From: Deltaproteobacteria bacterium
GTDB lineage: Bacteria > Desulfobacterota > JADFXK01
Reading direction: 5' to 3'
Assembly: GCA_015233355.1 (NCBI GenBank)
Contig: JADFXY010000003.1
Span: forward strand, 1-37,454
Length of the DNA: 37,454 bases
The notes under the pieces are model-generated. The model was not told the DNA's origin, ran no database searches, and was given only the letters and a program-made list of their open reading frames with translations. The position numbers were made by a program, and so were the translations under genes. Position 1 is the stretch's first letter. The number at the start of each line of letters is the position of its first letter. Positions 1,566-36,694 of this stretch are shown piece after piece.

Positions 1566-2615
1566 CTATAAATCTATCCTAAAGACCGTCCCGGCCTGGT
1601 CTGACCGGTAGCTCAGCTTCCACCCATGCACCTTCTCCAAAATCAATTTGGCAGAATAAAGGCCCAGACCGGTGCCGCCTTTTTTGCCATGGGTCACATA
1701 GGGCTGGAATATCTCGTTTTGCACCTTAGTCGGGATTGGTTTACCACCATTACGCACTTCCAAAGCCAAAGCTCCTTTTGGGTCTTGTTCCAGGGCCAGC
1801 TTTACTTCACCCCCGGCGTCTTCCGCCTCAATGGCGTTCTTGACCAGGTTTTCCAGAACCCGCTCCATTAATTGCCTGTCTGCGGTAAGGACGGGATTAG
1901 CTCCACCGACGTGGTTAAGGACCTGAACCACAACGTGCTTGGTGGCCGCCAGGGTCTGCATGGCTTCCCTTACGCCCGACAAAAGCTCGACCAGATCGAC
2001 TTGATCTTCTTTTCGGTGATACTCCCCCGTCTCCAGGAGGATCAGTTCGCGAGTCGAGTCCAACATCTGCATTGACTTATGTAGTTCACCACGAAGAATA
2101 TCCAGATATTTCACGGCGCGGGGCTCATTGACCACGGCCGGCACCTCGGCCAATCTTCTAGCCGAAAGGCTGGCAATAATCAGTTTGTTCTTTAGATCGT
2201 GACGGGTAATCCGATCCAGCCGATTCCGCATCAACCGATACCGGCTATGCAAGGACAAATCACGGATAATGGCCGTAACATAGAATTCCTGGTCATTGAC
2301 CTTGAGTAGAGAATGGGTCAATTCCATCGGAAATAGTTCACCGTTCTTACGCATTCCCTCCAACTCCTTAACCTCGGACACGTAAGAAGACCGCGAGTCA
2401 ACATTTTGCATAAACCGATTATAGGCCGTCCGATGTCTCTCCAGGTAGGCCGGAGGAATGATGACCTCAAATCCCAGGGTCTCTATTTCCGACTTCTGGT
2501 AGCCGAAAATAGTCTCAGCCATCTTGTTCCAACTCACGATGGTCCGGTTTTTATCAATGGTAATCAGAGCATCGGAGAGAGAGTCAACAATCTGAGTGAC
2601 AAATCTGTCTTTCAT
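1566..2615 (-). CDS. Cytoplasmic PAS-domain sensor histidine kinase
   Basis: 349-aa ORF. The N-terminal PAS is LSDALITIDKNRTIVSWNKMAETIFGY...GELFPMELT...YVTAIIRDLS. An H-box-like RITRHDLKNKL follows. The HATPase_c N-box is LENLVKNAIEA and the G-boxes are GGTGLGLYSAKLI. A GAGGA RBS lies upstream of the ATG at 2615. Confidence 0.85.
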   Translation of the reverse strand: MKDRFVTQIVDSLSDALITIDKNRTIVSWNKMAETIFGYQKSEIETLGFEVIIPPAYLERHRTAYNRFMQNVDSRSSYVSEVKELEGMRKNGELFPMELTHSLLKVNDQEFYVTAIIRDLSLHSRYRLMRNRLDRITRHDLKNKLIIASLSARRLAEVPAVVNEPRAVKYLDILRGELHKSMQMLDSTRELILLETGEYHRKEDQVDLVELLSGVREAMQTLAATKHVVVQVLNHVGGANPVLTADRQLMERVLENLVKNAIEAEDAGGEVKLALEQDPKGALALEVRNGGKPIPTKVQNEIFQPYVTHGKKGGTGLGLYSAKLILEKVHGWKLSYRSDQAGTVFRIDL

Positions 2616-8369: not shown

Positions 8370-9089
8370 TTAACTCGGGCCAGGGGCACTTTCTTTGGCT
8401 GATTTGCGTTTTTTGATTTGCCTGGCTTCGATTTCCATCGAGACCAGCCGGGCGAGCAAGATGGAGGGGAAAAGTTGCCCGATTACTGCCTCCAGCATAG
8501 CTGCCGTCTTAGCCGCGGCATGGACCGGAAAGATATCACCGTATCCGACTGAAGTTAGGGTCATGAAGCTGAAATAGATTAACTTCCCCTCGATGAAATC
8601 TATTCCCCCCGAAGGGTAAGATTGCGTGAAGTTGAACGCCTTTGGCGACAACATGGCCACTATCGAGTAGAGCTTTCCCCACAGCACCCCGATGAGTAAA
8701 TAAACGGCTACAGCCCCCGCAATTCGATGAGCATCAATATGACCTTCTCTAAATACATGGGTCAGGATCACAACGATAAGTAAGGCAATAAAGGCAACTT
8801 CAATAATTGTACTGGATACTTCCAGGCTCCGCCAGGGATACGCGAAGGTGATTACGCCACAGACCAGACCCGTGCCCCCTAAGGCCAGGACCAATCTGCC
8901 CCACACAGGGGTCTCCACGACCGCTCTAACACCGGATACAATGATCAGAAAAAAACAACCCTGGATCAAAATCTTGCCGAACGTGCCGGTTACTATCGGA
9001 TAAAATATAAATATATCCAAGAAAAGCAAGATCAGCAGGGCCGTCAGACCCGCATCACTAGACCAAAATCGCCTTGTAAGTCGGTGCAT
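8370..9089 (-). CDS. Potassium channel family protein (ion transport 2 domain)
   Basis: The selectivity filter TLTSVGYGD is preceded by several TM helices. I place the start at ATG 9089 (MHRLTRRFW), directly after a GGAGGAGGG RBS. The ORF-track start at 9128 has no RBS. Confidence 0.8.
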   Translation of the reverse strand: MHRLTRRFWSSDAGLTALLILLFLDIFIFYPIVTGTFGKILIQGCFFLIIVSGVRAVVETPVWGRLVLALGGTGLVCGVITFAYPWRSLEVSSTIIEVAFIALLIVVILTHVFREGHIDAHRIAGAVAVYLLIGVLWGKLYSIVAMLSPKAFNFTQSYPSGGIDFIEGKLIYFSFMTLTSVGYGDIFPVHAAAKTAAMLEAVIGQLFPSILLARLVSMEIEARQIKKRKSAKESAPGPS

Positions 9090-9405
9090 TGTTTCCCTCC
9101 TCCGTGGTTCAACATGGATCTTTAGCACGAACGGAGAGGAAAGACAACCTTGAATAGATGGACAGCCTCAATCAATTGGGGCGCTCCCCTGACATTAGGG
9201 ACGGATTAAAGCACGCAGCTCCCTCACACGTCCATTCAGAATGGTCCGTTCAGAAAAGGCTGAATAATCTGCATGAACTTTTCCGTGGGTGAAAGGTACT
9301 TGCCGGAAACACGGCAGCCGAACATCGGACCAGGCTTGCTCGATGCAGTACGACCGGGTCATGGGGGAGGAGTTGGGGCGGGTGATGGAGGAGCGATGAG
9401 TGTGT

Positions 9406-10044
9406 CTATTTTTTTGGTCGATAGTCACGAGGATCGAGACAGACGTCGTAAAGGAGTTTATCTAAGGGCAGCCAGTCGGTTTTGTTGATGCCACGTTTGG
9501 TGTGTTTCTGTGTCTGGTTGTGCGGAAAAGCTCAGGCTATTTTGATCCAACGGTTTTGCTCTTAGGCGATGGTTCGGATTTCATCGGCCACCTCGGAAAG
9601 GTCCTGGTCTTGGCTGTAGATGAGAGCGACATCATAAGCGTTTTTGTGCGCCAGTCGTATGGCGTCAATGGCGATACGAACATCAATGCCTTTTTCCTCG
9701 CCGACCAACACCTTGTGTTCATGTCCATCCGGGCAAAGAATAGTTCGGTTGCGGTAACGCAAAGGACGGGAAAAATTGTAGACTCCTTGTCTACTCATTT
9801 GTAACAATTTGGCAATCCAAAAGGAATTCCAAAATTGATCGTCTGCCGTGTCGGGAACACCGGTATAAAATCGAGTTTCGATTAATTGCCAGCCTTTTGA
9901 GCTGCAAATTGTTTGAGCAAGTTTTTGAGGGTCATAATTTGGAAAAGTATAGCCGAAAATTTCTTTTGCGGAGTGAAAAAGGTTTTGGCCGTCAAAAAAA
10001 GCAACGGCTCTGATGGTTGTCGGTGGAGTTGGATGAAAATTCAT
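9406..10044 (-). pseudogene. NYN-domain (LabA/DUF88-like) gene interrupted by two in-frame stop codons
   Basis: From ATG 10044 the frame reads MNFHPTPPTTIRAVAFFDGQNLFHSAKE...GEEKGIDVRIAIDAIRLAHKNAYDVALIYSQDQDLSEVADEIRTIA, then TAA (9564-9562). The same frame continues EQNRWIKIA, then TGA (9534-9532). It continues AFPHNQTQKHTKRGINKTDWLPLDKLLYDVCLDPRDYRPKK, ending at TAG (9408-9406). As I recall, intact family members read through this tail without interruption. Confidence 0.6.
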
Positions 10045-10141
10045 GACTTGAATTTCTTCGTATAAAAAAATAACCCCGCCCGGGCCTCTACACACGCACG
10101 AGGCGCTTTCGAGACGTGTCGAACGGGGAGCAAGTGTTTAT

Positions 10142-19141: not shown

Positions 19142-20998
19142 TTGATCAGGGCCTTTACTGCACACCATATGGACTATGATAAAGTCGACCAGCCTGTCAA
19201 ACTTGAAAGTGAACTCCAACCTATGTCAGCCATTAAGACAGATTCACTTACTACTAATGATTTGGACCGATTCAAGACAATCGTCGGCACGGTATTAAGT
19301 CAGGCTTTGGATCATATCACCACCATCCAAGGCTGGGTGGGATATGTGGATCGTGACTCTAAACAGATGATCACTCTGGCCCAAAAAGGACTTGACCGGA
19401 TTCACCTGGAGAAGATGCGGCTTTCAACCCGCACCGGCTTCTTGAAAGACTTAATGGCCCGAAAAATACCCGGATTGGTTGAGAAAGAGGAGATCCCCCC
19501 ATCTACGGCCAAGAAGTTGCCCATAAAACCTCCTTTCTTTTTCGTTCCAATTATCGTGGGGGAGCGGACGGTCGGCATCATCCTTCTTTCCAGCGACTTA
19601 ACAGATATCAATTTCAACACGACCGATGCCCTGTTGCTTATTTCTTTGTCTGTCCAGGCGGGTGGGATGCTGGAAAGCATCCGGATCTACGACAACCTGT
19701 CGGCCAGGGAGAAAGAGCTGCTTCATCTGCACAATATGGTGTTGGAAAGCCGCAATAAACTCCTGTTTGTTTTTGACACTATCCCCGATTTCATCTTTAC
19801 CGTTGATCAACAACTAAAAATTATAAATATCAATAAAGCCATGGCCAAAAAGCTGGGCCGCCATCCCCGGGAATTAGTGGGGCAAGACTGCCACGGGATT
19901 TGTGCCGGAGTAACCTGTAACTTCTCCACCGATGACATTACTTGCCCGGTCAGACAAACCTTTGCCACAGGAAGGGGCCTGAACTGGATAAGTTCTTCAC
20001 CGGGTCCCGATGGGGAAGAGTTTTTTGCGGAAGCTTACACTACTCCCATGGCGGACGCCGACGGGCGAATAGTCCAGGTAATTATCGTCAGCCGGGACAT
20101 AACCGAGAGAAAACGTTTAGAGAAACAGATTAAGGATTATGCCGAGAAGCTGGAACAAATGGTCCAGGAACGGACGGCGGAACTAAACGAAGAAAAGATC
20201 CGGCTCAAACCAGCCAACGAAAGGCTGGTCGCGTTAGAAAAAGCTAAGGCCGATCTGACCAACATGGTGATCCACGATCTCAAAGGCCCGATCACCGTGA
20301 TTATGGCTAACCTTGACCTTATCGGCCTGGATGATTTAACCGCAGATCAGTTGGAATGCTTAGACTCCGCCCAGGTCGGTTGCCAGGACCTGTTTCGAAT
20401 GGTGACCAACCTGCTGGACATCAGCCGGATGGAAGAACGTAAATTGGTCATAAACGGAACTTCCTTTGATCTGGCCGAGGCTCTGTCGGAAGTGGCGGCT
20501 AAAGTAAAATCACTGGCAGATCTTAAAGAAATAAATATTGAGGTTATTGTCCCTGAAGATATTCCGGTAATCGTGGCGGATCGGCCTCTGTTTGATCGAA
20601 TAATCCTCAACTTGCTGCACAATGCCATCAATCATTCACCCGACAACCAGGTTATTCTGCTCCAAGGTCAACTTTCGGTCACAGACAACGCTTTCCGGAT
20701 CGATGTGATTGATCGGGGACCAGGCATCCCGGAGGACGTCCGGGAGCTCATCTTCGAGAAATTCGTTCAAGCCCGCGGTTCCGAATCCAAATTCGGTACC
20801 GGCCTGGGTTTAACCTTCTGCCGCATGGCGGTGGAGGCCCATGGGGGACACATCTGGGTTGACGGCCGGGTCAAAACCGGATCAACCTTTTCTTTTACCA
20901 TCCCGGTAGGGGTTGGCGATGATTTGAAACCAGGACCAGGATCTGACCCGGCACCCGTAAACAGCATAACAACGCGGCTGGGCGGCCACAGAAATTAG
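19142..20998 (+). CDS. GAF-PAS sensor histidine kinase
   Basis: The GAF-like N-terminus is QGWVGYVDRDSKQMITLA...VPIIVGERTVGIILL. The PAS domain is FDTIPDFIFTVDQQLKIININKAMAKKLG...IIVSRDITERKRLE. The HisKA motif is KADLTNMVIHDLKGP and HATPase_c is LLHNAINHSP...DRGPGIP...GTGLGLTFC. The start is uncertain: TTG 19142 as in the ORF track, or ATG 19169. Confidence 0.85.
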   Translation: MIRAFTAHHMDYDKVDQPVKLESELQPMSAIKTDSLTTNDLDRFKTIVGTVLSQALDHITTIQGWVGYVDRDSKQMITLAQKGLDRIHLEKMRLSTRTGFLKDLMARKIPGLVEKEEIPPSTAKKLPIKPPFFFVPIIVGERTVGIILLSSDLTDINFNTTDALLLISLSVQAGGMLESIRIYDNLSAREKELLHLHNMVLESRNKLLFVFDTIPDFIFTVDQQLKIININKAMAKKLGRHPRELVGQDCHGICAGVTCNFSTDDITCPVRQTFATGRGLNWISSSPGPDGEEFFAEAYTTPMADADGRIVQVIIVSRDITERKRLEKQIKDYAEKLEQMVQERTAELNEEKIRLKPANERLVALEKAKADLTNMVIHDLKGPITVIMANLDLIGLDDLTADQLECLDSAQVGCQDLFRMVTNLLDISRMEERKLVINGTSFDLAEALSEVAAKVKSLADLKEINIEVIVPEDIPVIVADRPLFDRIILNLLHNAINHSPDNQVILLQGQLSVTDNAFRIDVIDRGPGIPEDVRELIFEKFVQARGSESKFGTGLGLTFCRMAVEAHGGHIWVDGRVKTGSTFSFTIPVGVGDDLKPGPGSDPAPVNSITTRLGGHRN

Positions 20999-21231
20999 GC
21001 TTAACCGCGAGGAGAAGCTGTTTTTTCTGTTCACCGGCCACCCTTTATGTTATAGTTCGACTCGGGGTTTCAGCCCCAGGCTGGATCTCAGATGTTAAAG
21101 TAACTAAAACAGAATTTACGAATCTGAAGTTTTTCTTGTCAATCGCCTGCGTTAATGGCCCGGCCGTGGCCACTCACCTGGCCGAATTAACCTTTTTTTC
21201 AATTATTTTTTTTTACTTCGCCGGAGGCACC

Positions 21232-22497
21232 ATGAATTTCAGAAAACGACCCGAAAACCTTCCCGAGGACATGACCACCGAGCAACCGTCCGAGGAAATG
21301 ACGACGGAACAAGCTCCCGAGGAACTGGCTAAAGGTAAAAACTATAAACTATATGCGGTTGTAATCATTGCTGTCCTCTTCGTGATAGCCACCGCCATCC
21401 CCTTTTTCTTTTCCCACACCCCATCGTCTGATTCCAAGCTCGGGATGACGTCGTCTCTGTCGGATAAGAAACCAGATTTTAGGCCACCGTCAGACCTGGG
21501 GAAATCTTCTATCCCAATGGCTCCGTCGGCTTCATCGGGTTCTTCCGTGATTCCGCCCGATTCCAAAACAGCTCCTCAATTTAAAGCTCCCTCAATGCCG
21601 AGTTCAATGCCGGCCGTGCCACCAACCGCACCGTCAGCCATTTTGCCGGCAGATAAACTCGACAGCAAAGGCGCACCGGGAATGCAGCAAAAGACATTGC
21701 CTCCCCTGCCCCCTAGAGAAGCCTTACTGGGACTGACCTTTACTTCTGCCGTGATCGATGTCATGGACTACGAGCTAAATCAACGAATGTTCGGGTGGCG
21801 GCCCAGCAGCTTTTTCTTCGGCAAACTGGCCTTGACCGACAACGTGAACAATACGCAAATGGGAGTGCTGACGGTTGTCCGCCGGATACTGATTGTGTTT
21901 AACGACAAAATCGGCCGTTTCTCCGATTCATTTGAGGTTAATCCCCATATCAACAACGCCTTCAACAACTTCAACTACAGTGCGGATAAGTTTTGGTTCA
22001 CGGCCACCACGAGCATGTATAACGATGCAGTGAATCAATTAAAGACCTATCGAAAAGATTTAGAAGCCGGCAAGGCGGTGTTTAATAATTCCTCTGCGGC
22101 CATGGTCAATATCTTGGGCGGATGTCTCGAAGTGTTGGGCAACGCTCACAGCAACTTGATTAAACAAACGGAAGACGACGGCAGTCCGGTAAGCTGGTTT
22201 AGACAAGATGACTACTTCTATTATGCCAAAGGCGTGGCCGTGGCCATGTCCAAAATTCTGAACGCCGCGGTGGTTGATTTCCAAGATAAATTAGCCCGCG
22301 CCGGGACGACCGATGTCGTTCGAGGGGCCGCAGCCTCGCTCGATAAGGCGGCCAAACTACAGCCATTGATTGTTATGGACGGCGGATTGGATTCCTTTTT
22401 CCCCAACCACCGCGCTAACCTGAGTTCCTTATACAGTGACGCTTTCCAGAAATTGAGCGCCGCCAGAAGCAACATGGGCACCTACGACAGACTCTAA
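21232..22497 (+). CDS. DUF2333-like membrane-anchored protein with acidic tandem repeat and Ser/Pro-rich linker
   Basis: ATG 21232 follows a GGAGG RBS. The N-terminus has the repeat EDMTTEQPSE/EMTTEQAPEE, then the TM helix LYAVVIIAVLFVIATAIPFFF, then about 120 aa rich in S/P. The C-terminal domain has FGWRPSSFFFG...TDNVNNTQMGVLTVVRR and ...FPNHRANLSSLYS. As I recall, these resemble DUF2333 family proteins. Confidence 0.6.
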   Translation: MNFRKRPENLPEDMTTEQPSEEMTTEQAPEELAKGKNYKLYAVVIIAVLFVIATAIPFFFSHTPSSDSKLGMTSSLSDKKPDFRPPSDLGKSSIPMAPSASSGSSVIPPDSKTAPQFKAPSMPSSMPAVPPTAPSAILPADKLDSKGAPGMQQKTLPPLPPREALLGLTFTSAVIDVMDYELNQRMFGWRPSSFFFGKLALTDNVNNTQMGVLTVVRRILIVFNDKIGRFSDSFEVNPHINNAFNNFNYSADKFWFTATTSMYNDAVNQLKTYRKDLEAGKAVFNNSSAAMVNILGGCLEVLGNAHSNLIKQTEDDGSPVSWFRQDDYFYYAKGVAVAMSKILNAAVVDFQDKLARAGTTDVVRGAAASLDKAAKLQPLIVMDGGLDSFFPNHRANLSSLYSDAFQKLSAARSNMGTYDRL

Positions 22498-29345: not shown

Positions 29346-31031
29346 CTATTGAGCCGCGAAGTTCGGCGCACCCAAAACGAGACGGATTTTTTTGTGCAAT
29401 TCATCGATGACGATCGGTTTAGTCACATACTCATCCATGCCGGATTCTATGCACTTTTCGCAGTCATCCTTTAAAGAGTGAGCGGTTAAGGCGATAATGG
29501 GGATATGTTTTCCGGTTTTCTTTTCCCGGTCTCGAATTTCCATCGTGGCCTGCTGACCGTTCATAACGGGCATTTGGAGATCCATTAAGACCAGATCGAA
29601 GTCCTCGCTTTCCAGGATCTCAACCGCTTTTTGTCCGTTAGCCACTAATGTCACCTGATGGTCGTACTTGTTTAGAATAGCCTCAACCAGCTTCTGGTTT
29701 ATGATATCATCTTCGGCCACCAATATCCTTAACGGCGGTATCTCAGATTCGTTTTGTTTCAACTCCGCCGCCGTCAAATGCCGGCTCGGCCCCATATCAT
29801 TATTTGACAAGCCAAAAGGAAGGTCGAAGTAAAACTCGCTGCCTCGGCCGGCCTCACTCTCCAAACGAATCTCCCCACCCATCAGTTCCACCAACCGCCT
29901 GGAAATGGCCAATCCCAGACCCGTGCCGCCATATTGACGGGTGGTGGAGGTTTCAGCCTGGGTAAACTCCTCGAAGATGGCTTTTTGTTTGTCCAGCGGG
30001 ATGCCTATGCCGGTATCCTCCACCCGGAAGCTCAAGACCATGCTGTCATTATCCATGGTTTCGGGATAAATGCCGATCTTCACCTGACCTTGATCGGTAA
30101 ATTTTATGGCGTTGTTCATCAGGTTGAGCAGGACTTGTTTTAGCCTAAGACCATCCCCGCGAAGTTGGGTGGGTATCCGGGGGTCAATCTCATAGGTCAA
30201 CGACAGTCCCTTTTCTTGGACGTTGATTCCCAGAGTCTTTATTAATGTTGTAATCAGGTTATTAAGATCAAAGACGGAACTCTCCACTTCCAACTTGCCG
30301 GCTTCGATTTTTGACAAGTCAAGGATATCATTTATTAAATCCATCAGGATATCGCTGGAATATTTGATCATTTCCAGTTTTTCGCGCAGTCCTGATGGAA
30401 GGTTCGACTGCAATAAGAGATTACTCCAACCCACGATGGAGTTCATCGGCGTGCGAATTTCGTGGCTTATGTTCGACAGAAACGTGCTTTTTGCCCGGTT
30501 GGCCTTTTCCGCCGCGTCTCTGGCCATCTTCAGCTCTATTTCAGCCAGATTTCGTTCGATAATTTCATGGTTAAGTTGCCGGTTAGTCTCTTGCAGTTCT
30601 TTGACCAGTTTTTCCAAGTCACTCTTATTTCGTATTAGTTCTTGTTTCTGGCTGTGTAATTGCAAAAATACCATTATTTTTGAGAGTAGGATTTCAGGGT
30701 CAAACGGTTTGGTCACAAAGTCAACGCCACCCGCTTTGTAGCCTTTAAAAACATGAAATTCATCGGAGTAAACCGCTGAAAGAAATATGATAGGGATATT
30801 TTGTGTGTTATGTTCGTCACGTATCAGTTCGGCCAATTCGTATCCATCCATTTCCGGCATTTGAATATCCAGGATGGCCAGGGCCAGGTCGTGATTCAAG
30901 ACAGCTTTAAGGGCATCATTACCGTTACCGGCCTTGATCACTTCAACATCCAGTTCACTTAGAATCTTTTCCAAGGCAAACAAATTTTCCGGTTTATCAT
31001 CTACAAGCAGTATCTTCTGTCTCGATTCCAT
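29346..31031 (-). CDS. Hybrid sensor histidine kinase/response regulator (REC-coiled coil-HisKA-HATPase_c-REC)
   Basis: ATG 31031 gives MESRQKILLVDDKPENL...ILDIQMPEMDGYEL (REC1). HisKA is KSTFLSNISHEIRTPMNSI and HATPase_c is LLNLMNNAIKFT...DTGIGIP...GGTGLGLAISRRLVELMGG. The C-terminal REC is RILVAEDDIINQKL...LMDLQMPVMNG...ALTAHS. Confidence 0.85.
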   Translation of the reverse strand: MESRQKILLVDDKPENLFALEKILSELDVEVIKAGNGNDALKAVLNHDLALAILDIQMPEMDGYELAELIRDEHNTQNIPIIFLSAVYSDEFHVFKGYKAGGVDFVTKPFDPEILLSKIMVFLQLHSQKQELIRNKSDLEKLVKELQETNRQLNHEIIERNLAEIELKMARDAAEKANRAKSTFLSNISHEIRTPMNSIVGWSNLLLQSNLPSGLREKLEMIKYSSDILMDLINDILDLSKIEAGKLEVESSVFDLNNLITTLIKTLGINVQEKGLSLTYEIDPRIPTQLRGDGLRLKQVLLNLMNNAIKFTDQGQVKIGIYPETMDNDSMVLSFRVEDTGIGIPLDKQKAIFEEFTQAETSTTRQYGGTGLGLAISRRLVELMGGEIRLESEAGRGSEFYFDLPFGLSNNDMGPSRHLTAAELKQNESEIPPLRILVAEDDIINQKLVEAILNKYDHQVTLVANGQKAVEILESEDFDLVLMDLQMPVMNGQQATMEIRDREKKTGKHIPIIALTAHSLKDDCEKCIESGMDEYVTKPIVIDELHKKIRLVLGAPNFAAQ

Positions 31032-31164
31032 GTTTAAACCCTTATGATGGGTAATCGTTCCTGCCAAAACGTTTAAAAATTCTACGACAAGCGCCGGGTT
31101 TTGGGAAAACCATATACTTTGAACGGTTACAAAGGACGCACGTCAAAGAGTCAATTGTACCCGT

Positions 31165-31854
31165 TCAAAGTATAGTTTTTTCCAACAACGTAGTCTTTAC
31201 TCCGGCGCGATTTCCGTACCGCGTTGCCGTCTCCAATTCAATAAGCAGCCGGGTTATTCCCGGAATCGGCAGCACGTGATCAACCTTGGTCATGTCCAAT
31301 GCCGACCTGGGCATGACGGGATGCGCCGCATGGGCCGGATCCTGAACGATTGTCAATCCCCCACATTGCTTAATCAAATGCAATCCGTAGGCCCCGTCAT
31401 GGTTGGCGCCGGTCAAGATAATGCCGATTAGACCCGATCCATAAGCGTCCACGGCGCTCTCAAACAAAACATCGATGGACGGTCTGGCAAAGTTAACCTT
31501 TTCATCGACGGACAAAGAAAAGGTTTGATCCCTTTCAATCAACAGATGATAGTTGGGCGGGGCCAGGTAGATCCATCCGGGCTGAATCTTCTCTTTTTCA
31601 TCGGCTTCTTTAGCCTTGACCGCACATCTTCGGCAAAGTAATTCCGCCAGATAATCACCCTGGGTGGGGTGCAAGTGTTGAACGATGATGATCGGCCATG
31701 AAAATTCGACGGGCAGAGGGGGGAGCAGGTCGCTCAGCGCTTCCATACCGCCGGCAGAGACGCCGATCACTACCGACTGATACTGCTCATGAATTTTGTC
31801 CCGGTCCTGTAAACGCATGTTCGGTTCTAACCCGCTTTGCGAAAAATTTTCCAT
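31165..31854 (-). CDS. cheB: CheB-type protein-glutamate methylesterase, catalytic domain only (no receiver domain)
   Basis: 229 aa. Candidate catalytic residues are the Ser in VIGVSAGG, the His in IIVQHL and the Asp in TGANHDG. The protein starts directly with the esterase domain. The ATG at 31854 overlaps cheR by 28 nt, and the alternative ATG 31818 lies 8 nt after the cheR stop. Confidence 0.85.
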   Translation of the reverse strand: MENFSQSGLEPNMRLQDRDKIHEQYQSVVIGVSAGGMEALSDLLPPLPVEFSWPIIIVQHLHPTQGDYLAELLCRRCAVKAKEADEKEKIQPGWIYLAPPNYHLLIERDQTFSLSVDEKVNFARPSIDVLFESAVDAYGSGLIGIILTGANHDGAYGLHLIKQCGGLTIVQDPAHAAHPVMPRSALDMTKVDHVLPIPGITRLLIELETATRYGNRAGVKTTLLEKTIL

Positions 31855-32645
31855 TTCTCGTCAACATCCTTAAAGTACTTCTCCACCCAGGAAAATTTCA
31901 AGCTTTCCTTACTCCCCAGAGCCAGAATGCCGCCATGGATGAGGCTTTCATAAAAGAGTTTGAGGACATGGTCTTGAAGAGCCTTATCGAAATAGATGAG
32001 GACATTTCGGCAGAGCACAAAGTGCATTTCGCTGAAGACCGTATCCGTAACCAGGTTGTGGTGGGCAAAGGTAATATTTCTCTTCAATGATTGATTTATA
32101 ATAACCGAGTCGTACCGGGCGTGGTAGTATTCCGAAAAGGACCAGCTTCCTCCCGAGCGTTGATAGTTGGCGGTAAAATCCTTCATCCGGTCGAGGCGGT
32201 ATACCCCCTGGCGGGCTTTGTCTATGGCCACCTGGTTGAAATCGGTCGCGAAAATAGTGGCGCGGTCATAAAATCCCTCTTCCTGGAGGACAATGGCCAG
32301 GGAATAGACCTCCTCCCCGGTAGCGCATCCGGCATGCCAGATCTTGACAAAGGGATAGGTTTTGAGATGGGGTATGACTTTTTCCCTCAACACCTTAAAG
32401 AACTCGGCATCGCGAAACATCTCTGTCACGGTGATGGACATATCCTGGACAAGTTTTTCGAAAAACAATTCATCATACAGCAGTTGCGGAATCATTTCAC
32501 TAACTTTTTTGAAACCGGACTTGGCCAGAAAACTCTTGACCCGCCTGGTCACCGATGCCCGGGCGTATTGCCTGAAATCATAACCATAGCGGAGAAAAAC
32601 GGCTTCCAGCAGCAGGTCGATTTCGATGTCTTGAACTTGTTGCAT
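31827..32645 (-). CDS. cheR: CheR-type protein-glutamate O-methyltransferase
   Basis: 272 aa. The N-terminal helical domain is LLLEAVFLRYGYDFRQYARASVTRRV. The SAM-binding fold is VKIWHAGCATGEEVYSLAI...IFATDFNQVAIDKAR...HNLV...CRNVLIYF. Confidence 0.9.
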   Translation of the reverse strand: MQQVQDIEIDLLLEAVFLRYGYDFRQYARASVTRRVKSFLAKSGFKKVSEMIPQLLYDELFFEKLVQDMSITVTEMFRDAEFFKVLREKVIPHLKTYPFVKIWHAGCATGEEVYSLAIVLQEEGFYDRATIFATDFNQVAIDKARQGVYRLDRMKDFTANYQRSGGSWSFSEYYHARYDSVIINQSLKRNITFAHHNLVTDTVFSEMHFVLCRNVLIYFDKALQDHVLKLFYESLIHGGILALGSKESLKFSWVEKYFKDVDEKWKIFRKAG

Positions 32646-32692
32646 GGGATAAGATCCTTTACCAGGATGGTGAGACTTCTTCCTCGTCGTAC

Positions 32693-35600
32693 TTACTTAT
32701 ATAACCAGACCCGCATCATCGACAGCAACCGGTCCACGTCCACCGGTTTAGACAGGTAATCGCTGGCTCCGGCTGCGATGCACTTCTCCCGGTCATCTTT
32801 CATGGCCTTGGCCGTCAGGGCGATAATCGGCAGCCTGGTAAATCGTGCTTGTTCTCTGATTTTTTTGGTGGTTTCATATCCATCTAGAACCGGCATCATG
32901 ATATCCATCAAAACTAAATCCACATCAGGATGTTCATTTAATAAACTCAATGCTTTTTTACCATCCTCCGCCTTGATCACGTTCATCCCCTTATCTTTTA
33001 AAACCCGGGCCAGGGCAAAGACATTCCGCATATCATCATCCACCACCAGAATCTTTTTAGCGGTGAAAATATTTTCCCGGTCATGGAGACTAATAATCAT
33101 TTTCTGCTTTTTTTCCGGCATAGTCTTGACCATCCGGTGCAAGAACAGGGCAGTTTCATCCAGGAGCCGTTCTTCAGACTTCACGCCCTTAATGATAATG
33201 GAGTCGGCAAATCTCCGCAATTCTGCTTCATCTTCCCGGCTTAATTCTTTTCCGGTGTAGACGATCACCGGCGGCAAGCTGATATGCCTTTCCTTCTCCA
33301 GTTGATTCAACAACTCGAACCCGGTCATGTCCGGCAATCCCAGGTCCAGGACCATACAGTCAAACCCGGCTTGCCGAAGCGCGGTTAAGGCTTCCCGGCC
33401 GGTGGCCGCTTCGGTGATTTTCACATCCTCTTCCCCGACCAGGTCAACAATGGCGCGCCGCAATGTTTCATCATCTTCCACGATCAACAGATCTTTTATT
33501 TTCTTATCAAGGACCTCTTCAATCTTGCCGAAGGCGTCTTCCAACTGCTCTTGTTGCACCGGTTTGGTTAAAAAACCGATCGCGCCACGCTTGAAGGCGT
33601 CCAGCGAAGTTTCTGAGGCGGAAATAATATGAACCGGGATATGCCTGATTTTAGAATTTATTTTAAGGGCGTCCAACACCTCCCAGCCGTTAATTCCAGG
33701 CAGGCTCAAGTCTAAAATAACGGCCTCCGGGATATGTTTCTCCGCCAGGCGCAAGCCGCCTTCACCTGTAGCCGAGACAAGAGCCTTAAAGCCCTTTTCA
33801 TGGCACTGGTCGCGCAATATGCGGGCAAAATTCGGATCATCTTCGATAATCAGGATACACCTGTCATCTTTAGAAATATCGGCCCGGTCATCGCTGACTG
33901 GTTCAGCCTCGAACCGTTGAGGGAAAACTTTCGATCCGGATGCTTGAACGTCTCCAGGCAAAGCGGCCCGGGCCGATTCCTCGGACGGCGACACGCCCGG
34001 CCCAACGGGTCTGACCATCTGCCGGTCAGGGCAACCCCCGGCCTCTATGGGCAGAAACAGGGTAAACGTCGAACCTAGACCAACCCGGCTATGGAGCTGC
34101 AACTCTCCACCCAGCAGCTTGGCCAGTTCTTTCGAAATAGACAAGCCCAATCCCGTTCCGCCGTATTTCCGGGAGGTGCCCCCGTCCACTTGATGAAAAG
34201 CCTGAAATACCTCGAACAGCTTCCCTTGAGGTATGCCCACCCCCGTGTCCGTCACAGATATGGCCACGGCCTCGGCCGTTCTTAAACCTATGGCCGAAAG
34301 GTCGGCGTCCGCCCGAGGCAGGGAAAAATCAACCGTGACACTCCCCTGATGAGTAAATTTAACCGCGTTGGCCACTAGATTCTTGAGAATTTGCTCCAGC
34401 CGTTGTTGATCGGTTTTGATCGCGGCCGGCAGCCCGGCATCTAAATTCAGGTTAAAGATCAATCCCTTTTCCTCAAAAACATGTTTGAAATTGGACTTAA
34501 GATTATCGGCTAGTTCGGTCAATATGACTTCCCCCACATTAATCGTCATCTTGCCGGCTTCTATTTTAGACAGATCCAGTATCTCGTTGATCAACAACAA
34601 CAGATCTGCGCCGCTCTTATAGATGACCCGGGCGGCCTCGACCTGGTCCGGGGTCAGATTTTCCTTCTTGTTGTCCGATAAGTTACGCGCTAAAATAAGC
34701 AGGCTGTTCAATGGCGTACGTAATTCGTGTGACATATTGGCCAGGAATTCAGACTTGTATTTTCCGGTTATCTCCAGTTCTTTGGCCTTCTTTTCTAAAT
34801 CTTGACCTATTATCTCCAAATCCAGATTCTTCTGCTGGATCTGTGACTTCTGTTCTTCCAGGTAGTTGTTTTTTTCTTCCAACTCTTCATTCACCACTTG
34901 TAGTTCTTCCTGCTGCTGCTTCAATTGTTGTTCCGACATCTTCAACGCCATCGTCTGCTCTTCCAATTCCTCATTGGAGGCCGCCAGTTCTTCCTGTTGC
35001 ATCTGAAGTTCCTCAGCCTGACGACTGGTTTCAGTTAGCAATTCTTGGAGTTTTTGCCGACTGGCGGCGGTGTTGAAGGCCACGGCCAAAGTACCGCCGA
35101 CCACGCTCAGAAAATTCAACACTTGATCGGAAAACTCGTTCACCGCCCCCAATTCCAGCACGCCTTTGACCTGATTGTCATAAAGAAAAGGAACCACCAC
35201 GATATTCCTGGGGAGGGTGTCGCCAAAGGAAGAGTTGATCCGGATATAATCTTCGGGGACGTTGGTGACGGAAATGATCTCCCGTTCCAGCGCGGCCTGG
35301 CCCACCAACCCTTGACCAAGTTCATAGACATTGGCCAAGCTTTTCCGTTTATTAAAGGCATAACTCCCCACAAGTCCCAGCCGCTGGTCATCCTTAGCGA
35401 TATAAACGCTCCCGATCTGGGCGTTCAGGTACTTGGCCAAAAAGCTGATGATATTTTTGCCCAGGGAATAAATGTCCTGTTCTCCGCTGATCTTCTCGTT
35501 TAATTCGGTTTGGCCGGTTTTGATCCAGTTCTGGCGCTGATTCTCGGCAGTAGTATTGCGCAGGGATTGAGTCATGTTATTGAGGGCCTGGCCCAGTTGA

Positions 35601-36694
35601 TCGTTTGGCCCCTTAATTTCAATAGATCTGCTGTAATCTCCCCGGCTGATACTCAGTGCGATATCCGACACCTCCCGCAGGGTATCGGTTTTTTTGCGGA
35701 GCGCCAAGCCCAGTTCATCCTCTTCCGAGCGGGGGGCGACGATTCCCCGAAAGTCACCAGCCGCCACAGCCTCAGACTGTTTCACTACTTCTCTAAAGTT
35801 AGTCACGATTTGATTCAGTGACAAAGCGACCAGATCATATCTGCTTTTTACCTCAACCGTCCGGGTGAAATTTCCCAACGCAATCTTTTCAGCTAGATTT
35901 GCCTTTTCCTGCAAATTCGACTGCATTTCCCGAAATGAGTTGGCTAACTCACCTATTTCATCCCTTGAATGAATGTCGATTTCCTTTCTAAAATCTCCTT
36001 CAGCCATGCTCAACATGGTGGCTACAATCTTTTTCAGCGGTATGTTTATGCTCCGGGTAATCACCAGGGCGATTAATGCTCCGGCCAGGAAAGTCGAGAT
36101 AATAACCAGGAGCATAAAAATCAAAGTTCGATTTTTAACCATTTCGGCGTCGGCATAAAAAGCTTCCGCTTTATTATTGGAGAATTCTCTGACATACCTC
36201 ACTTTTTTAATCAGGTCTTCGACAAGTTTTATACCTTTATTCTGAACCAATTCTGCTGCCGCTTCTCCTTTGCCCTCACGCATCAGCTGAATTATCTCGG
36301 TCCGAATCGGACGCCAGTCGAGAAAAAGTTGATAGGCATCCTGGGCTATTCTCTTTTCCCCCAAAAACCGGTCCAAGACTATGTCAAATTGCTCTCGTGT
36401 TTCTTGATCATGTCGATTTATCCTTATTGATGACTCCATAACATGTTTCTGGTCCGCATGTTCCACCATGTCTCTGATCAATTCATCCATAAGGATTATG
36501 TTGGCCCTGATATCCCTGATGGCCCGCCCCACCATCAGAGGATGACGGTACATATTGCCCGTCATACCGGCAATGGAGTGAATTTCAACCATGGCCAGGA
36601 CACCAACCGCGACGGTTAATGCGACCACTATGGAAAATCCCAGCAGTAGACGGGAACCTATTTTCAAACTGGACAAACCTATTTTCATCGTCAT
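32693..36694 (-). CDS. Large hybrid sensor histidine kinase: TM-helical sensor (4HB_MCP-like)-TM-four HAMP-like units-GAF-coiled coil-HisKA-HATPase_c-three REC domains
   Basis: 1333 aa with two TM helices (about aa 14-36 and 190-212). Four tandem HAMP-like units have AS2 segments (E/L/A/R)G(D/N)(F/Y)...(EIGEL / LVALSL / ELGLAL / QLGQAL). The GAF segment is NAQIGSVYIAKDD...VVVPFLYDNQVKGVLELG. The coiled coil spans aa 545-645. The H-box is FLANMSHELRTPLNS (His656). HATPase_c is LVANAVKFT...DTGVGIP...GGTGLGLSISKELAKLLGG. The REC domains begin ILIIEDD, LLIVEDD and ILVVDDD. Confidence 0.9.
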   Translation of the reverse strand: MTMKIGLSSLKIGSRLLLGFSIVVALTVAVGVLAMVEIHSIAGMTGNMYRHPLMVGRAIRDIRANIILMDELIRDMVEHADQKHVMESSIRINRHDQETREQFDIVLDRFLGEKRIAQDAYQLFLDWRPIRTEIIQLMREGKGEAAAELVQNKGIKLVEDLIKKVRYVREFSNNKAEAFYADAEMVKNRTLIFMLLVIISTFLAGALIALVITRSINIPLKKIVATMLSMAEGDFRKEIDIHSRDEIGELANSFREMQSNLQEKANLAEKIALGNFTRTVEVKSRYDLVALSLNQIVTNFREVVKQSEAVAAGDFRGIVAPRSEEDELGLALRKKTDTLREVSDIALSISRGDYSRSIEIKGPNDQLGQALNNMTQSLRNTTAENQRQNWIKTGQTELNEKISGEQDIYSLGKNIISFLAKYLNAQIGSVYIAKDDQRLGLVGSYAFNKRKSLANVYELGQGLVGQAALEREIISVTNVPEDYIRINSSFGDTLPRNIVVVPFLYDNQVKGVLELGAVNEFSDQVLNFLSVVGGTLAVAFNTAASRQKLQELLTETSRQAEELQMQQEELAASNEELEEQTMALKMSEQQLKQQQEELQVVNEELEEKNNYLEEQKSQIQQKNLDLEIIGQDLEKKAKELEITGKYKSEFLANMSHELRTPLNSLLILARNLSDNKKENLTPDQVEAARVIYKSGADLLLLINEILDLSKIEAGKMTINVGEVILTELADNLKSNFKHVFEEKGLIFNLNLDAGLPAAIKTDQQRLEQILKNLVANAVKFTHQGSVTVDFSLPRADADLSAIGLRTAEAVAISVTDTGVGIPQGKLFEVFQAFHQVDGGTSRKYGGTGLGLSISKELAKLLGGELQLHSRVGLGSTFTLFLPIEAGGCPDRQMVRPVGPGVSPSEESARAALPGDVQASGSKVFPQRFEAEPVSDDRADISKDDRCILIIEDDPNFARILRDQCHEKGFKALVSATGEGGLRLAEKHIPEAVILDLSLPGINGWEVLDALKINSKIRHIPVHIISASETSLDAFKRGAIGFLTKPVQQEQLEDAFGKIEEVLDKKIKDLLIVEDDETLRRAIVDLVGEEDVKITEAATGREALTALRQAGFDCMVLDLGLPDMTGFELLNQLEKERHISLPPVIVYTGKELSREDEAELRRFADSIIIKGVKSEERLLDETALFLHRMVKTMPEKKQKMIISLHDRENIFTAKKILVVDDDMRNVFALARVLKDKGMNVIKAEDGKKALSLLNEHPDVDLVLMDIMMPVLDGYETTKKIREQARFTRLPIIALTAKAMKDDREKCIAAGASDYLSKPVDVDRLLSMMRVWLYK

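Follow-up and report, generated by a model that had tools for sequence, protein, structure and literature searches.

The stretch of DNA analysed here, 37,454 nucleotides (nt) of contig JADFXY010000003.1 from a Deltaproteobacteria bacterium (hereafter the window), encodes on its minus strand a CheR-type methyltransferase and a CheB-type methylesterase between two hybrid histidine kinases, which we call HK1 and HK2. We assign this four-gene module, with a probability of roughly 0.6, to the class represented by Bacillus cereus RsbK and Pseudomonas putida CfcA, in which the output of a hybrid kinase would be set by glutamate methylation of the kinase's own signalling helix. HK1 is probably the substrate of the two enzymes. 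In chemotaxis, reversible glutamate methylation serves as the textbook mechanism of memory. Outside chemoreceptor arrays, B. cereus RsbK is to our knowledge the one case with experimental proof of glutamate methylation, in a system without a demethylase. The module therefore belongs to a known and partly characterised kind. A first-pass annotation had regarded its wiring as uncharacterised, which is contradicted by the existing studies of RsbK/RsbM and cfcABCDE but fits the paired receiver-less CheB and HK2, as we found no experiment in the RsbK/CfcA literature on the role of either. The four genes, identified by open reading frame (ORF) calls and given as positions in the 37-kb window, are as follows.

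36694-32693, minus strand: HK1, 1333 amino acids
32645-31827, minus strand: cheR, 272 amino acids
31854-31165, minus strand: cheB, 229 amino acids (217 from M13)
31031-29346, minus strand: HK2, 561 amino acids from the ATG at 31031

These coordinates are those of the first-pass annotation, and its spacings of 47, 47, -28 (an overlap) and 133 nt across asnS-HK1-cheR-cheB-HK2 are also correct. Domains were called by Pfam profile search of the window proteins. HK1 matches 4HB_MCP_1 (residues 10-184), two HAMP domains, GAF (406-540), HisKA (647-714), HATPase_c (761-884) and three Response_reg domains. Along the polypeptide, a first transmembrane (TM) segment (~12-42) is followed by the periplasmic 4HB_MCP_1 domain, a second TM segment (~189-216), the HAMP pair, GAF, a coiled coil, the kinase core and the three receivers. 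Because these two segments of the hydropathy profile bracket the 4HB domain, we predict this domain to be extracytoplasmic. The Pfam search gave no CHASE3 match to HK1 at E<=0.01. All of the phospho-acceptor residues of HK1 are present (His656, D995, D1117 and D1264), and its three receivers, together with those at D55 and D484 of HK2, make five in the operon, one more than had been counted. The window had also been described as lacking the hairpin of methyl-accepting chemotaxis proteins (MCPs), which is correct, although the MCP-type 4HB sensor and HAMP domains of HK1 had been overlooked. The parts of HK1 that matter for the argument are the following.

36143-36667, minus strand: 4HB_MCP_1 sensor, residues 10-184 (Pfam PF12729, E=6e-18)
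35075-35479, minus strand: GAF domain, residues 406-540 (Pfam GAF_2, E=1e-16)
34757-35062, minus strand: signalling helix (coiled coil), residues ~545-646, from GAF to HisKA (sequence, family alignment and register)
34958-34999, minus strand: motif copy 1, QQEELAASNEELEE, residues 566-579 (pattern count)
34874-34915, minus strand: motif copy 2, QQEELQVVNEELEE, residues 594-607 (pattern count)
34727-34729, minus strand: codon of the predicted phospho-accepting His656 in the H-box SHELRTP (HisKA match)

As the first-pass annotation had suggested, we surveyed the conservation of the kinase-cheR-cheB-kinase neighbourhood. The survey was anchored on CheR and covered 80 species-representative genomes (one per species) and 3 long contigs, yielding 59 loci with enough flanking DNA; the probes used to score their ORFs were the window proteins together with CheW, CheA and Tsr of E. 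coli, the last three having been validated against Pfam and the PDB. CheB lies next to CheR in 52/59 loci, a large motif-bearing kinase is present in 52/59 and an HK2-type kinase in 55/59, at least one kinase is found in 57/59, and all four genes occur together in 46/59. CheA or CheW is found within ±10 kb in 0/59 loci. A match to the MCP signalling domain occurs anywhere in the locus in 4/59, and when all loci are counted such matches adjoin the module in two only (L056 and L074). The loci come from organisms as diverse as Syntrophobacter, Desulfosarcina, Geobacter, Paenibacillus, Clostridium, Leptospira, Bacteroidales, Chitinophagales, Planctomycetes, Chloroflexota, Vibrio, Gallionella, Nitrospinia and Spirochaetales, and one, a contig of a Deltaproteobacteria metagenome-assembled genome (MAG), is ~98% identical to the window at the CheR locus. 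The 3 long contigs, annotated with Pfam, carry a 4HB_MCP_1/HAMP/GAF hybrid kinase, CheR, a CheB of ~190-205 residues and a REC-kinase, in one of the three in the order CheR-CheB-kinase-kinase. Dozens of species in many phyla thus share the four-gene arrangement, more than chance would give. More than 60 linked large kinases share an invariant core of GAF, coil, kinase and three receivers, to which varying N-terminal sensors are joined. Clustering of all other neighbouring ORFs, in which Hpt proteins, output regulators and a cfcE counterpart were sought, gave no further recurrent family, so that conservation in cis extends to neither an Hpt nor an output gene; in this respect the earlier statement that the operon lacks such domains stands, its receiver count apart.

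The signalling helix of HK1 contains heptad-spaced Glu-Glu pairs arranged in two blocks, E561/562, E568/569 and E575/576 in the first and E596/597 and E603/604 in the second, and the first block reads A-EE-LQMQQ-EE-LAASN-EE-LEE. Alignment of the 125 residues before the H-box of 67 large kinases revealed a motif that hardly varies, QQEEL-x-x-x-NEELEE[QK]T, in one to three copies per protein. In the strict form EE[LM]xxxNEE[LMFI], this motif occurs in 64/67 large kinases, in 0/87 HK2-type kinases and in 0/796 other neighbouring ORFs, and in none of the CheR or CheB proteins of the surveyed loci. A six-frame translation of the window contains it at two places only, both in HK1, with pattern starts at 568 and 596. 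This distribution makes HK1 a probable substrate and HK2 not. The flanking kinases had both been proposed as the likeliest substrates; the proposal is probably right for the large kinase and gains no support for HK2.

The position of the motif is as constant as its sequence. The last copy lies 60 residues from the phospho-accepting histidine in 46/65 family members, as it does in HK1, where the first Glu of motif copy 2 is exactly 60 residues ahead of His656; in the remainder the distance is 53, 67, 88 or 95. As these values differ from 60 by multiples of 7, the heptad register of the coil in HK1-type kinases is carried on into the DHp helix. Placing Leu at heptad position d would put the invariant Asn at position a, which fits a parallel dimeric coil. 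Residues 567-577 of HK1 (QEELAASNEEL) are identical at 7/11 positions to residues 302-312 of Tsr (LEETAASMEQL; sequence and numbering checked against PDB chains). E569 and E576 of HK1 align in this comparison with E304 and Q311 of Tsr, known methylation sites in the first MCP methylation helix. By precedent and resemblance, the QQEEL/NEEL motif is a strong candidate methylation site, though not one proven through covariation.

Two groups of loci show what happens to the motif elsewhere in the family. In L112, L113 and L130 the gene order is kinase, kinase, REC protein, CheR, CheB, REC protein, and the motif of the large kinase is relaxed to QQEEL[ML]Q[AS]N[AQ]ELEE; the second Glu pair is therefore not strictly required for linkage to CheR/CheB. 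A set of soil metagenome loci (L142-L165; for example, L144 10001-10255) encodes near-identical kinases of ~2100 residues with a KYKSEFLANMSHE H-box and a homologous coil in which QQKELQQTNEQLAQ replaces QQEELxxxNEELEE. These loci have a second kinase downstream and no CheR/CheB, and their large kinases may represent a natural methylation-free branch of the family.

Both enzymes of the module appear to belong to subfamilies distinct from those of chemotaxis. Window CheR consists of CheR_N and CheR domains in Pfam and is of the S-adenosylmethionine (SAM)-dependent protein-glutamate O-methyltransferase type. It shares 31% identity with B. subtilis CheR (5FTW) and 30% with the Salmonella enzyme, compared with 50-70% with kinase-linked CheRs of other phyla. 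The best 120 database matches are all proteins of ~275 residues with 60-70% identity, named from Deltaproteobacteria, Anaerolineae, Chloroflexi, Desulfobulbaceae and Syntrophobacteraceae. Against the NCBI equivalog model for CheR, the window protein scores 93.5 bits with a cutoff of 435, and CheB falls short of the NCBI curated cutoffs in the same way (162.7 against 342 and 156.9 against 293), in part because it lacks the receiver. We found no dedicated model in NCBIfam whose cutoff the module proteins pass. Alignment of CheR to 5FTW and 1BC5 shows that the SAM-binding fold is present. Among structures, the pentapeptide-independent enzyme of B. subtilis matches best, and the alignment lacks the Gly-rich loop seen in Salmonella CheR. 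Both observations are only suggestive as regards the pentapeptide-binding beta-subdomain.

CheB is of the methylesterase/deamidase type and, in the Pfam search, consists of the CheB_methylest domain alone; the absence of the N-terminal receiver found in chemotaxis CheB had escaped the first-pass annotation. The Ser, His and Asp of the active site align with those of 1CHD and 3SFT (GVSAGG from residue 31, VQHL from 58 and NHDG from 151), so the catalytic residues are intact as judged from the alignment. Homologous CheB ORFs have a median length of 196 residues and exceed 300 in only 1/68. The start of cheB is ambiguous: the ATG at 31854 gives the 28-nt overlap with cheR and the ATG at 31818 (M13) an 8-nt gap. 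The shorter product is closer to the homologues in length, and neither start has a clear ribosome-binding site.

HK2 is a soluble REC-HisKA-HATPase-REC protein by Pfam, with D55 (a position counted by hand on the translation), His190 and D484 present. The hydropathy profiles of CheR, CheB and HK2 contain no hydrophobic TM-like segments. The mechanically called HK2 ORF opens at a TTG at 31067, and an RBS-like AAGGG lies 8 nt ahead of the ATG at 31031. The linker before its H-box (KELQETNRQLNHE) contains no Glu-Glu pairs. Across related loci HK2-type kinases are REC-first as a rule but otherwise vary, some having a PAS domain and some no recognisable HisKA, with the C-terminal REC present or absent.

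The C-terminus of HK1 resembles those of its relatives. It reads MMRVWLYK (window 32696-32719), and the large kinases of loci L001-L085 end in ...LLS[LM]xRVWL[YFS][KRQ], with the Trp ~4 residues from the end; a Trp within the last 8 residues is found in 54/66 large kinases and 5/82 HK2-type kinases. We considered the conserved RVWL[YF][KR] tail as a docking tether for CheR/CheB and rejected it because paralogues without CheR/CheB keep the tail; it seems to be a trait of the third receiver domain. A pentapeptide C-terminus of the form xWxx[FYW] occurs in 0/66 large kinases and 0/82 small kinases.

The B. cereus system provides the experimental precedent. RsbK is a CHASE3-HAMP-GAF-S-helix-HK-REC protein (S-helix, signalling helix), the gene for which adjoins that of the CheR-type methyltransferase RsbM (PMC4574943). 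RsbM methylates RsbK in vitro with 14C-labelled SAM, methylation of the S-helix is needed to hold sigma-B off, and about 127 RsbK-like kinases were counted in 10 phyla (PMC4574943). A genomic association of RsbK-type kinases with CheR is also credited to de Been and colleagues in the citation given by PMC12848376. The likeness to the window module lies in a CheR-type gene beside that of a hybrid kinase in which an extracytoplasmic sensor is combined with HAMP, GAF, S-helix, kinase core and REC. However, RsbK has one receiver and HK1 three, B. cereus has neither a paired CheB nor a second kinase, and the genes for RsbY and sigma-B, which are adjacent in B. cereus, are absent beside the window module. 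Two Desulfovibrionaceae MAGs (L047 and L050) have tandem motif-bearing kinases (~950 and ~1450 residues) followed by CheR, with no CheB called downstream, a layout that resembles the B. cereus arrangement.

The P. putida cluster is closer to the window in gene content. The cfcABCDE genes open with that for the hybrid kinase CfcA, and cfcB/cfcC are one of three CheR/CheB pairs (CheR3/CheB3) in this organism; the receiver of cfcD is the closest paralogue of that of CfcR, the diguanylate cyclase CfcR depends on His496 of CfcA for its activity, and phosphorylation of CfcR by CfcA is proposed (PMC4951495). Two TM helices of CfcA enclose a periplasmic CHASE domain, and the protein also has a GAF domain, a kinase core and three receivers (bioRxiv 10.1101/2024.11.25.625174); it is described as a salt sensor in PMC12421958, which cites Tagua 2022 on this point. 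The likeness to HK1 extends through the TM-flanked periplasmic sensor, GAF domain, kinase core and three C-terminal receivers, and that between the clusters through the order of large kinase, CheR, CheB and a REC-containing second protein, with the output regulator encoded outside the cluster. The HK1 sensor is instead a 4HB_MCP_1 domain followed by two HAMP domains where CfcA has CHASE/CHASE3, the window organism is a Deltaproteobacteria MAG, the cfcE counterpart is not conserved and no CfcR-like gene is present in the 37 kb. The four window genes match the description of cfc gene for gene except for the sensor, which suggests orthology on the grounds of architecture and gene order rather than alignment. 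Because CfcR is unlinked in P. putida, the lack of a response regulator in cis in the window is no argument against membership of this class.

Compared with canonical chemotaxis, the module has the same CheR and CheB folds, and its candidate sites are likewise heptad-spaced Glu/Gln pairs on a coil downstream of HAMP. It lacks CheA, CheW, the MCP hairpin, the CheB receiver and the C-terminal pentapeptide tether. The HK1 coil is most likely a two-helix parallel dimer that runs into DHp rather than an antiparallel four-helix bundle as in MCPs, and the regulated kinase shares a polypeptide with the methylation helix. CheB-CheR fusion kinases (K13924-type) also couple CheB and CheR domains to PAS, HisKA and HATPase domains without CheA/CheW, and differ from the window system, in which CheR and CheB are separate proteins. 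These fusions may also have NEEL-rich coils; a search with a 71-residue helix for motif-bearing CheB-CheR fusions returned only 2 matches, probably owing to the low complexity of the query.

Several observations weigh against the assignment to the RsbK/CfcA class with HK1 as the substrate. The large kinases of the CheR-anchored survey had been chosen by similarity to the HK1 helix, and hence metagenome contigs were also scanned in the reciprocal direction, starting from the helix and H-box and using kinases with at least 2 kb on each side. In the raw counts CheR/CheB is near 13/17 strict-motif kinases and 3/18 motif-less ones (Fisher p=6e-4), and the three motif-less kinases with CheR/CheB carry near-motifs. 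After de-replication at 70% identity, however, the counts are 7/10 and 2/5 (p=0.33), as about a dozen of the motif-less kinases (~2100 residues) are near-identical, and we have dropped this association as support. Several paralogues without CheR/CheB retain the first Glu-Glu pair, so the motif is not exclusive to linked kinases, and heptads rich in Glu, Gln and Leu are also typical of generic coiled coils. The sensor of HK1 is 4HB_MCP_1 and not the CHASE3 of RsbK and CfcA, and the link to RsbK/RsbM and CfcA/CheR3 is drawn from architecture, gene order and literature rather than from an alignment or tree. RsbM has no paired methylesterase, and its authors think relief through demethylation unlikely (PMC4574943). 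Mutants of the other cfc genes keep the CfcA-dependent phenotype, according to unpublished results cited in PMC4951495, so that the contribution of CheR/CheB may be subtle. Finally, the absence of che and MCP genes refers to the 37-kb window, which leaves room for a che/MCP system elsewhere in the genome.

This last point bears on the view that CheR and CheB are an ordinary adaptation pair for MCP-CheA-CheW arrays encoded at a distance, and lie between the two kinases by accident. The full catalytic domains of both enzymes, the intact CheB active site and the 9 MCP-type ORFs found within 10 kb in a few related loci would agree with it, as would the fact that in this genome the search covered the 37-kb window. 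We nevertheless consider it distinctly unlikely, because linkage to two kinases is maintained in 46/59 loci of many phyla with CheA or CheW in none, because CheB lacks the receiver through which CheA controls CheB, and because both enzymes fall far below the curated chemotaxis cutoffs, with CheR closer to kinase-linked homologues (50-70%) than to chemotaxis CheRs (~30%). P. putida CheR3/CheB3 are, moreover, without a chemotaxis role in the account of Garcia-Fontana 2013 given in PMC4951495. The earlier inference that the pair stands outside any local MCP-CheA-CheW system is thus borne out by a kinase linkage kept across phyla. A substrate other than the HK1 helix, namely both kinases, or HK2 or a receiver domain in place of the helix, is very unlikely: linkage to CheR/CheB is just as tight for HK2-type as for HK1-type kinases (55/59), and HK2 has a coiled-coil linker before its H-box, but the Glu-pair motif is absent from all 87 HK2-type kinases, the window linker has no such pairs, HK2 architectures vary in their PAS, HisKA and C-terminal REC domains, and in the sole experimental precedent it is the S-helix of the large kinase that is methylated (PMC4574943). 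We give least credence of all to the idea that the QQEEL/NEEL repeats are a purely structural coiled-coil signature and that CheR/CheB act elsewhere. The similar heptads of unlinked paralogues, often with the first Glu-Glu pair, and the loss of significance on de-replication speak for this idea; the residue-level resemblance to the Tsr methylation helix with its modified positions aligned, the methylation of the RsbK S-helix by experiment (PMC4574943) and the absence of any other conserved candidate substrate within the module speak against it.

A different question is whether methylation would be reversed. It could act as a static set-point or licence, with CheR holding HK1 off, CheB serving as a one-time deamidase or being redundant, and release coming from receiver phosphorylation. 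Methylation represses in B. cereus, where the authors doubt relief through demethylation (PMC4574943); the other cfc mutants behave as described above in the results cited by PMC4951495; CheB has no receiver and so no obvious activity feedback; and the conserved Gln-Gln ahead of each Glu-Glu pair could be a deamidation site. Against this, CheB has been kept beside CheR in 52/59 loci from different phyla, which suggests that the reverse reaction is still needed. In models of chemotaxis, moreover, demethylation can depend on activity without CheB phosphorylation. We consider a static role unlikely.

If HK1 is indeed regulated by methylation of its own helix, the module might operate as follows. 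The 4HB domain of HK1 would detect a cue from outside the cytoplasm, GAF might sense a cytoplasmic ligand as well, and the signal would pass through the HAMP-HAMP-GAF region and along the parallel coiled coil, in heptad register, to the DHp helix with His656, a path suggested by the sequence. CheR would methylate the second Glu of the heptad-spaced pairs, for which E562, E569, E576, E597 and E604 are the candidates. The resulting neutralisation of charge on the coil would shift the equilibrium between the on and off states of the kinase, for which RsbK, where methylation inhibits, is the precedent. The receiver-less CheB would strip the methyl groups, and may deamidate the conserved Gln-Gln before each Glu pair. 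Lacking a receiver, CheB would be free of phospho-control in cis, and feedback would therefore be expected to act through conformation-dependent access to the sites, as in MCPs. Phosphoryl groups would move from His656 to the HK1 receivers and onward to the receiver at the N-terminus of HK2, a response regulator from another locus, or both. HK2 could thus be a second-tier kinase gated by its N-terminal receiver and downstream of HK1 phosphotransfer. By analogy, the output would be an unlinked regulator comparable to CfcR (REC-GGDEF-EAL) in P. putida or RsbY (REC-PP2C) in B. cereus. Extending this scheme, we tentatively suggest that the four genes may form a self-contained adaptive two-component module, in which CheR and a constitutive receiver-less CheB would give a hybrid kinase MCP-like adaptation in at least 8 phyla by acting on heptad-spaced Glu pairs set 60 residues from the phospho-accepting histidine, with HK2 as a second tier or feedback arm; of this extension we are doubtful.

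A domain search of all large ORFs detected no CheA, CheW or MCP signalling domain in the 37 kb, in agreement with the first-pass annotation, and confirmed glyQ and glyS beside HK2. The upstream gene annotated as asnS is a fragment that encodes a truncated class II tRNA synthetase of the Asp/Lys/Asn type, which is compatible with asnS. The other large ORFs encode two PAS kinases, a Liv-type ABC transporter, an amidase, MutS, an M23 peptidase, an Fe-S oxidoreductase, an asparagine synthase and a glycosyltransferase. A scan for promoters and terminators across the operon gave counts equal to the shuffled expectation, and we therefore make no statement on sub-operon structure. The features below were noted in passing.

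1566-2615, minus strand, and 19142-20998, plus strand: orphan PAS-domain histidine kinases with no adjoining response regulator and without the Glu-pair motif
8370-9128, minus strand: small ion-channel protein with two TM segments, apparently unrelated to the module
9562-10095, minus strand: NYN-domain protein (predicted RNase), apparently unrelated to the module
21136-22497, plus strand: DUF2333 protein, apparently unrelated to the module

GC skew is negative over nearly the whole 37 kb and strongest at the HK1 gene (about -0.13), and the GC content of the four-gene block (0.46-0.50) is below that of the adjoining glyQS (0.54-0.57).

The window belongs to a multi-phylum family, much larger than the characterised examples, that retains both CheR and CheB. 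This family offers precise candidate sites (E562, E569, E576, E597 and E604 in HK1) together with a conserved second kinase. The P. putida cfc system governs biofilm formation and cyclic di-GMP and the B. cereus system the general stress response, and both organisms are tractable for establishing the roles of CheB and HK2. Should the loop prove reversible, sensory adaptation would be a property of many ordinary two-component pathways, and the adaptive-module reading, if true, would amount to chemotaxis-style integral feedback on an ordinary phosphorelay.

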